A stretch of 14,378 bases of DNA from a virus (lineage: Duplodnaviria > Heunggongvirae > Uroviricota > Caudoviricetes): IMG/VR virus record IMGVR_UViG_2706794664_000003, one strand, 5' to 3'. This document shows, one piece after another, positions 8,762-9,448 of this stretch (within the stretch, counting starts at the first letter, position 1; each line of letters begins with the position of its first letter). The position numbers were made by a program, and so were the translations under genes. The notes beneath the pieces were generated by a model. That model had not been told where the DNA came from and ran no database searches. It saw nothing but the letters and a program-made list of their open reading frames with translations.

Positions 8762-9448
8762 TCACTCCTTCTCTTCTTTACCGTAGTGGAGTTGACCAAT
8801 TTTGATAAGAGGGCGTCCCTGAGATTTGCGGTGTAGATTGGTATCGCGCAGAGAATACACACAGCCACAATATTCCTGCTGATAGAATTTTTCGCGCTTG
8901 CTGATTTCAATCATACGGGACGAGCCGCCCTGCTTGCGCCAGTTATAATCCCAGTACACCATGCCCGGATAATGCGCGACGGCTCGCCGCCCACAGTCGT
9001 TAACCTGCTGCATATTTTTCCAGCGTGAAATGCCCAGTGAACTGCTGATCACACTGAAACCATTTTCAGCGGCGTACAGCGCTGTCCGCTCAAAACGCAT
9101 GTCAAAACACATGGTGCAACGGATCCCTCGTTCGGGCTCCCATTCCATTCCTTTGGCTCGTTCAAACCAGTTGTCTGTGTCGTAATCAGCATCAATAAAC
9201 GGCACGCCGTGTTGTTCAGCAAAGCGAATATTCTCATCCTTACGAATTAAATACTCTTTCTGAGGATGAATGTTCGGGTTGTAGAAAAAGATGGTGTAGT
9301 CGATTCCCGAGGCCTGAAGCGCCTCCATCACCTCACCGGAACATGGAGCACAGCAAGAGTGCAGTAGTAGTTTGTTTGCCCCGTTTGGGAGCTCCAATTT
9401 GGGCCGTTTGAAATCAGCAACTGTCATAAATATGTTTATTGGGGTCAT
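8762..9448 (-). CDS. QueH-like protein (DUF208, epoxyqueuosine reductase family)
   Basis: 228-aa ORF with [11 protein letters not shown] near the N-terminus and later Cys motifs (CTMCF, CGC), which I recognise as the DUF208/QueH signature. No clear Shine-Dalgarno sequence at 9448 or 9427. Confidence 0.55.

Follow-up and report, generated by a model that had tools for sequence, protein, structure and literature searches.

A predicted epoxyqueuosine reductase gene, queH, carried by Rac/Qin-type lambdoid prophages of Escherichia coli

Escherichia coli has the full pathway for the synthesis of queuosine (Q) (PMC5372724), the last step of which is catalyzed by the cobalamin-dependent enzyme QueG (PMC4646009; PMC5175355). 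QueH is assigned the same reaction, from epoxyqueuosine (oQ)-tRNA to Q-tRNA, and both are iron-sulfur enzymes (PMC9508795), although the two are unrelated in fold and family and QueH is a cobamide-independent alternative to QueG (PMC6461909). QueG and QueH occur together in many streptococci (PMC12632869), and a 2019 survey of viral 7-deazaguanine genes reported no homologs of QueA, QueG, or QueH (PMC6884629). Here we describe a queH gene in a stretch of 14,378 nucleotides from a virus of the Caudoviricetes (IMG/VR record IMGVR_UViG_2706794664_000003; the whole stretch is referred to as the window), the minus strand of which represents a segment of a lambdoid (Rac/Qin-type) prophage with the nin region around queH. 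The gene probably encodes a functional QueH that was captured from an enterobacterial chromosome and would complete Q-tRNA without vitamin B12 (cobalamin) in lysogens.

Identity of the queH product

The QueH of Thermotoga maritima, with structures in the Protein Data Bank (PDB 7lc5, 7lc7, and 9deu), reportedly binds a [4Fe-4S] cluster and an adjacent iron through Cys and Asp residues. The window gene and the motifs by which it was compared with this enzyme are given below, with residues numbered in the 228-amino-acid open reading frame (ORF) that contains the gene.

Positions 8762 to 9427, minus strand: queH coding sequence, 221 amino acids and a stop codon, with the second ATG (M8 of the 228-amino-acid ORF) as the most likely start; based on Pfam PF02677 and RefSeq.
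Positions 9341 to 9355, minus strand: CCAPC motif, C32-C33-A-P-C36, aligned with C9, C10, and D13 of T. maritima QueH.
Positions 9107 to 9118, minus strand: CxxC motif, C111-T-M-C114 (RCTMC), aligned with CERC of T. maritima QueH.
Positions 8861 to 8869, minus strand: CGC motif, C194-G-C196 (YCGCVYS), aligned with YCGCV of T. maritima QueH.

A QueH (DUF208) identity had been proposed in an earlier note made from the DNA sequence alone, together with a Pfam profile search and the inspection of the cysteines on alignment as ways of checking it. The profile search gave an essentially full-length match to PF02677 (QueH), covering profile positions 1-174 of 175 with an E-value of 1.9e-65 and a score of 220.6 bits, the gathering cut-off being 23.5 bits; the family also goes by the names DUF208 and COG1636. 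All seven motif cysteines (C32, C33, C36, C111, C114, C194, and C196) were present, thus no loss of conserved cysteines was seen. They were invariant in two alignments of close homologs (16 and 26 sequences) and were the majority residues at their columns in 80 diverse family representatives, which were drawn from an exhaustive search yielding 4,755 family members at E<=1e-3. Among these representatives, Cys was found at each of the CCAPC positions (C32, C33, and C36) in 67 of about 70 sequences and at the two CxxC positions (C111 and C114) in 78 and 77 of the 80, while the CGC motif was kept in most of them; the CxxC and CGC motifs were both invariant in the close homologs.

T. maritima QueH (7lc5) was found by sequence alone with an E-value of 5e-22, and the CC, CxxC, and CGC motifs were aligned in this match. 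Six cysteines as well as the NPN and R..C..C motifs are common to the two proteins, although their identity is only about 30%. Asp13 of the T. maritima enzyme corresponds to Cys36 of the prophage protein; Asp is the exception at this position in the family, in which most members have Cys. The prophage protein also differs from the T. maritima enzyme by about 20 extra residues at the N-terminus and about 25 at the C-terminus, both of which are common to other gammaproteobacterial QueH proteins. The motif cysteines are putative metal ligands, as reportedly assigned by Li et al. (2021), in line with the titles of two PDB entries for T. maritima QueH, 'C9S mutant' and 'D13N mutant', the residues of which align with C32 and C36.

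An AlphaFold2 model of the queH product (predicted local distance difference test score, pLDDT, 75; predicted template modeling score, pTM, 0.78) was compared with known structures. The five best Foldseek matches of the model in the PDB were all T. maritima QueH, with E-values of 3.5e-12 to 2.2e-10, TM-scores of 0.81-0.84 normalised by target, and root-mean-square deviations (rmsd) of 2.6-3.5 A, and the model would accordingly share the fold of the entries 7lc5, 7lc7, and 9deu (TM-score 0.83 by target, rmsd 2.6 A). The next matches were other adenine-nucleotide alpha-hydrolase-like proteins, with E-values of about 1e-4. The profile match, the catalytic residues, the predicted fold, and the orthology and context described below all agreed, and the proposed identity was confirmed at the level of sequence and model, by which the gene is predicted to encode a canonical epoxyqueuosine reductase QueH. 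It is very probable that the protein is an active oQ reductase.

Chromosomal relatives, selection, and carriage by prophages

The best database relatives of the protein were 75-90% identical and all had the PF02677 domain. Those with names were QueH proteins of Erwinia, Providencia, Proteus, Photorhabdus, Gibbsiella, Pantoea, Dickeya, and others. The nearest ones (90%) were encoded by chromosomal queH genes of Enterobacter, Klebsiella, and Citrobacter koseri, followed by those of Erwinia (86%) and Providencia (83-84%), and chromosomal queH was also found in E. albertii and Photorhabdus. The premise of the earlier note that E. coli and its relatives normally use QueG therefore holds for E. coli but not for the relatives at large, as many Enterobacterales carry a chromosomal queH with 80-90% identity. 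Enterobacter ludwigii, Pantoea endophytica, and Pantoea sp. NPDC088449 appeared by name among the matches to both QueH and QueG.

The chromosomal QueH proteins of Enterobacterales have the same length, the same CCAPC, CxxC, and CGC motifs, and the same conserved C-terminal extension as the prophage protein. Their genes lie in stable chromosomal neighbourhoods, whereas prophage queH lies between DUF977 (or a Zn-ribbon-like ORF) and hok/sok. The order was tmcA-DUF441-queH-...-purC in Providencia, benE-queH in Photorhabdus, and mltF-purL-queH-glrK-qseG-glrR-glnB-hmp-glyA in Erwinia (metagenome contigs; locus L008, positions 6001-6666). In two clusters of 90% identical relatives, the members of which were named from Citrobacter koseri, Klebsiella, Enterobacter, and E. 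albertii, the context was a LysR regulator, a GNAT acetyltransferase, queH, and csbD. The Erwinia block from mltF to glyA is presumably syntenic with E. coli, where queH is absent, and this arrangement hints either at an ancestral presence of queH in Enterobacterales followed by loss or at an insertion at that site. These comparisons indicated that the prophage gene is, as judged from sequence, an ortholog of the housekeeping queH of related bacteria.

In a neighbour-joining tree, five prophage alleles formed one clade, which was the sister of the chromosomal genes of the Citrobacter/Klebsiella type and the Enterobacter-like type. The nucleotide distance between the prophage alleles and these chromosomal genes was 0.19-0.22, and the difference at third positions was 0.44-0.52, suggesting that the capture was not recent or that the donor is unsampled. 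The G+C content at third codon positions was 0.48-0.55 in the prophage alleles and 0.63-0.66 in the Enterobacter/Klebsiella-type genes. An ancestor of the Rac/Qin-type lambdoid phages would thus have captured queH, together with its promoter and leader, from an enterobacterial chromosome.

In complete E. coli genomes, queH was detected in 995 of 5,426, of which 985 matched at >=80% coverage (about 18%). The copies were mostly 95-99% identical, their number did not exceed two per genome, and every match listed bore the name QueH and an intact coding sequence from the Prokaryotic Genome Annotation Pipeline (PGAP). When the K-12 reference locus was used as the query, queG was found in all of the 5,426 genomes. 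Every carrier of queH therefore has both enzymes, and the gene is an addition to queG, a core gene in E. coli, and not its replacement; of the earlier proposal that a non-orthologous replacement of QueG is carried as phage cargo, the cargo in a QueG-containing host remains and the replacement does not. The accessory, phage-borne queH and the core queG would together give an E. coli lysogen the QueG plus QueH state seen on the chromosomes of several relatives.

The survey of related prophages, which had also been suggested, extended to phage and viral collections. Among 50,697 deposited phage records, the complete 45-kb Escherichia phage HannyBb was the sole clear carrier, with a 96.5% identical gene between the replication genes and mok/hok that is annotated as 'hypothetical protein'. 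Short, unannotated 'Bacteriophage sp.' fragments of faecal origin (31-50% identity) and the 'Acinetobacter phage MD-2021a' records (330-380 kb, 78%) were not counted as phage carriage because they are possibly bacterial DNA. In IMG/VR, 189 viral contigs contained a queH relative, and the best 80 of the 189 were checked copy by copy. The gene was intact with all seven cysteines in 80/80. The arrangement was DUF977-queH-hok in 49 contigs, Zn-ribbon ORF-queH-hok in 12, DUF977-queH-Dcm methylase in 12, another gene-queH-hok in four, and DUF977-queH-contig end in three. The adjacent hok region without queH is found in Shiga toxin (Stx) phages and other lambdoid phages.

Public annotation already contains this protein in E. 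coli under the name QueH, and the molecule is thus already known. The exact 221-amino-acid protein is listed in NCBI as 'MULTISPECIES: epoxyqueuosine reductase QueH [Enterobacteriaceae]' with at least 1000 contigs. No discussion of a phage-borne QueH was found in the searchable literature, the coverage of which is incomplete, so that absence of a report is no proof. The phage context, where the gene has been labelled 'unknown function' in PHROGs and 'hypothetical' in HannyBb, is of modest novelty.

The Nei-Gojobori ratio of nonsynonymous to synonymous substitutions (dN/dS) among the prophage alleles was 0.025-0.061, with dS up to 0.45. Against queH of Erwinia, Providencia, and Photorhabdus, the synonymous sites were saturated (pS of about 0.85) and dN was 0.09-0.15. 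As the prophage alleles are monophyletic, these values indicate that queH has been kept under strong purifying selection while on phages. This result bears on the possibility that queH is a neutral passenger of a successful prophage family in which QueG suffices. Such a reading would fit the universality of queG and the presence of queH in only about 18% of the genomes, as well as the mild laboratory phenotypes of Q loss (PMC5175355; PMC9508795). However, a neutral gene in a decaying prophage would gather frameshifts and replacement changes, whereas dN/dS stayed at 0.03-0.06 across alleles differing at up to 20% of third positions, all of the 80 viral copies were intact with the catalytic cysteines and the promoter-like element described below, and the E. 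coli copies were intact in PGAP. We therefore regard mere passage as quite unlikely. About one in five complete E. coli genomes thus has a prophage queH under strong purifying selection.

A role in 7-deazaguanine modification of DNA, in place of an action on tRNA, was also considered, as many phages carry FolE, QueC/D/E, and DpdA for DNA modification (PMC6884629). In HannyBb, a DNA methyltransferase fragment adjoins queH. However, no homolog of tgt/dpdA, queC, queD, queE, or folE was found in the window, and the annotation of the 45-kb HannyBb genome lists none. We know of no report of epoxyqueuosine in DNA. The known phage pathways also branch at preQ0/preQ1, before QueA and QueH (PMC6884629), and a function in DNA modification appears to be a very remote prospect.

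The slot directly downstream of queH was found to hold variable cargo in Rac/Qin-type prophages (window positions 8200-8761; loci L014, L015, L016, and L017). The window has hok/sok in this slot, and an ST131 strain has hokD. An O157:H7 strain carries a Dcm methylase together with an NgoMIV-family endonuclease there, FDAARGOS_1277 a hypothetical protein along with a Kiwa KwaB-like one, and strain A10 a DUF1971 gene. The gene is therefore located at the edge of a cargo/defence hotspot without any constant neighbour, and sits at the boundary of the replication module and the variable cargo slot. It is a probable accessory 'moron' of the prophage, carried by some related phages and absent from others. 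Like other lambdoid morons and nin-region cargo such as hok/sok, restriction-modification, and Kiwa-like genes, it is accessory and lies between conserved modules beside other cargo, and a candidate promoter of its own precedes it. Its product differs from theirs in being a housekeeping tRNA-modification enzyme rather than a toxin, defence system, or virulence factor, and no terminator-like site was called after the gene.

This neighbourhood raises the question of phage-host or phage-phage conflict, in which a change at the wobble position would protect tRNAs from an anticodon nuclease or colicin, or would harm superinfecting phages. In line with such a role, the downstream slot of different prophages is occupied by hok/sok, by a restriction-modification pair of the NgoMIV type, or by a gene resembling Kiwa KwaB, and nucleases acting on the tRNA anticodon loop are known to target Q-family tRNAs. 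However, neither QueH nor the two flanking small ORFs matched PADLOC-DB at E<=0.01, and since the flanks vary on both sides, queH has no constant companion gene. At 90% identity to housekeeping enzymes, the protein shows no lineage-specific change in the motifs, as would be expected if its biochemical task had stayed the same, although such an enzyme could still bring a pay-off related to conflict. We consider a role of this kind improbable. Likewise improbable is a wider version, in which queH is kept on lambdoid prophages because the switch from oQ to Q counts in conflict or niche competition. Phages and colicins use BtuB as a receptor, and its loss is common; queH may then free the queuosine status from BtuB-dependent B12 uptake, or alter the susceptibility to anticodon nucleases and colicins. 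If this were the case, a phage-borne housekeeping enzyme would be reprogramming the epitranscriptome of its host as a member of the defence/cargo hotspot.

Coding start, upstream element, and expected effect in lysogens

The longest ORF at this locus, of 228 amino acids, extends over positions 8762 to 9448 on the minus strand. The earlier note had taken this ORF as the gene; the ORF is present, but the coding sequence is likely to begin at M8 and to encode 221 amino acids. The elements upstream of this start are as follows.

Positions 9428 to 9448, minus strand: in-frame upstream extension of seven codons, which yields the 228-amino-acid ORF; probably 5' leader and not coding.
Positions 9462 to 9470, minus strand: TGCTACACT, candidate extended -10 element (TGnTAnnnT), 43 nt upstream of the ATG at 9427; from comparative alignment.

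The start at M8 (position 9427) is the most likely one by comparison with known genes. RefSeq WP_012421537.1 ('epoxyqueuosine reductase QueH') starts there, with the same coordinates as 8762 to 9427, in a genome with a 100%-identical gene; the chromosomal homologs begin at the equivalent residue; and a natural allele, that of strain A10, is interrupted by a stop codon between M1 and M8. The protein was assigned in PHROGs to phrog_3217 ('unknown function'; E=1.9e-138), the profile of which has 188 positions and begins at residue 41 (M41 of the 228-amino-acid ORF, positions 9326-9328). This start suggests that many phage gene calls use an internal Met and omit the CCAPC motif, which may be why the gene is of 'unknown function' in PHROGs and 'hypothetical' in HannyBb.

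The upstream regions of six aligned prophage contexts had an invariant block in common, TGATGCTACAC, with TGCTACACT as its core. The core was identical in five of the six sampled prophage alleles, and strain A10 reads TGCTACACA, in which the final T is lost. The element was kept in A10 although the sequence further upstream is unrelated, and it was present in 80/80 of the IMG/VR copies. A TGnTAnnnT element also precedes the start codon by about 40 nt in several chromosomal queH genes of Enterobacterales. It reads TGCTACACT in Erwinia (position -40), TGCTAAAAT in the contig of the Citrobacter/Klebsiella type (-44), and TGCTACAAT in the Enterobacter-like contig (-42), or TGCTA(C/A)A(C/A)T at -40 to -44 overall. 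From the form of the element and its occurrence at the same spot in the chromosomal genes, we infer that a native promoter and leader were captured with queH. Transcription of queH may thus be independent of phage promoters, and we lean slightly towards its expression in lysogens from this promoter.

The A10 allele (locus L015, positions 5988-6656) was the most divergent E. coli allele, with 93% nucleotide identity. It has two notable substitutions, I109R and C152S; the Cys replaced in the latter is invariant in close homologs but does not occupy a metal-ligand position in T. maritima. The A10 copy may be weakened.

De novo synthesis of cobalamin is absent in E. coli. Since QueG requires cobalamin, lysogenic conversion is the most likely effect of queH: lysogens would be able to complete Q synthesis under a shortage of B12 or a block in its import, with QueH carrying out the cobalamin-free conversion of oQ to Q at position 34 of the host tRNAs for Tyr, His, Asn, and Asp. 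We give about an even chance to B12 independence as the benefit that has been selected. If this is true, carriers and non-carriers of a common prophage module would differ in tRNA wobble modification under B12 limitation, and queH would provide a simple, testable case of a phage altering the tRNA modification state of its host. It would also be a caveat for studies in which the queuosine status of E. coli is taken to depend on QueG and B12 alone.

Several points weigh against a captured, functional QueH that is expressed in lysogens and serves them under B12 limitation. The confidence of the AlphaFold2 model is moderate (pLDDT 75), and the validated QueH enzymes that we know of are distant from the prophage protein, that of T. 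maritima being about 30% identical. An NCBIfam scan of the queH product gave no model match, a result that is uninformative because the PGAP name evidently came from other evidence. No Shine-Dalgarno sequence was recognisable before either of the two ATG codons (M1 and M8). In a generic scan of positions 8200-10100, which needs a -35 hexamer, neither a promoter before queH nor a terminator to either side of the gene was called, and the promoter and terminator counts within this range were no higher than in shuffled sequences; expression in the lysogenic state is accordingly a prediction, the promoter being a putative one recognised as a sequence motif. The gene may instead be transcribed mainly from the phage promoter pR after induction. 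Finally, an advantage of Q over oQ is assumed here, and the gut often supplies corrinoids.

Prophage setting, tRNA genes, and small neighbouring genes

Read along the minus strand, the window starts with a CI-like repressor (on the plus strand), Cro, YdaT, a 220-amino-acid protein, and a DnaC/IstB-like ATPase, followed by DUF977, a 137-amino-acid Zn-ribbon-like ORF, queH, hok/sok, and a 95-amino-acid ORF. Then come DUF1367, YbcO, a DUF1133/Q-like antiterminator, and four tRNA genes, and the order ends with holin, lysozyme, Rz, the small and large terminase subunits, and portal. The position of queH as prophage cargo in the nin region, with Cro, YdaT, the DnaC-like protein, and DUF977 upstream and hok/sok, DUF1367, YbcO, and the Q-like gene downstream, was therefore as the earlier note had described. 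The following features flank the gene.

Positions 8379 to 8704, minus strand: hok/mok toxin ORF and hok/sok RNA region, directly downstream of queH (Pfam HOK_GEF, E=9.8e-23).
Positions 5863 to 6173, minus strand: four phage tRNA genes, Gly-UCC, Thr-UGU, Arg-UCU, and one with the anticodon CAU (ARAGORN, Rfam, and RefSeq of the identical region).

The tRNA cluster is located at its usual site between Q and the lysis genes. As had been noted from the sequence, none of the four tRNAs has a GUN anticodon (UCC, UGU, UCU, and CAU by ARAGORN), and they are not substrates for queuosine. In other prophages, four, two, or no tRNA genes were found near queH, and their number varied independently of it.

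These data, together with the orientation of queH, are relevant to the alternative that QueH serves the lytic growth of the phage as a delayed-early gene of pR, raising the Q content of host tRNA and perhaps acting along with the phage tRNAs. The gene is indeed oriented as the early operon of pR, with no terminator-like site between the replication genes and queH, and the four tRNA genes represent an investment of the phage in translation. However, the tRNAs are not Q substrates and do not vary with queH, and NAU/(NAU+NAC) was 0.53 in 18 phage genes, the same as the 0.53 in a K-12 chromosomal sample, and NAY codons were not enriched. The suggestion that the phage tunes tRNA modification in connection with its tRNAs was thus not upheld. 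Furthermore, since tRNA persists for long and an infection is over within tens of minutes, remodelling of the tRNA pool would be a weak lever; the native promoter-like element has been kept, which would be needless under transcription from pR; and most related lambdoid phages have no queH, including the Stx phages sharing the hok module. A benefit in lytic growth is therefore unlikely, and completion of Q synthesis in the lysogen is preferred as the role of queH.

The four tRNAs all read A-ending codons (GGA, ACA, AGA, and AUA). The tRNA with the CAU anticodon (positions 6097-6173, minus strand) was called tRNA-Met by ARAGORN, but PGAP names it tRNA-Ile in the RefSeq region of identical sequence. 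Presumably it is a lysidine-modified tRNA of the Ile2 type for AUA.

The 137-amino-acid ORF between DUF977 and queH (positions 9596-10009, minus strand) gave a weak, sub-threshold match to a Zn-ribbon of the TFIIB type. It was present in 12 of the 80 IMG/VR loci, absent from most other queH prophages, and matched no PADLOC family. Two further ORFs on the minus strand, of 98 amino acids (positions 5389-5685) and 95 amino acids (positions 7842-8129), had no Pfam match; the latter, located between hok and DUF1367, is a 'hypothetical protein' in RefSeq.

A scan of the whole window at the Rfam gathering thresholds detected only sok and the four tRNAs; before queH, neither a riboswitch nor any further RNA element was seen. 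The sok match (RF01794) scored 117 bits at positions 8529-8704. No terminator was found between queH and a sigma-70-like site at positions 8711-8740 on the minus strand, directly after the stop codon of queH and at the beginning of the hok/sok region. This site consists of TTGATT, an 18-nt spacer, and TAGAAT, and is probably the promoter of the hok/mok mRNA.

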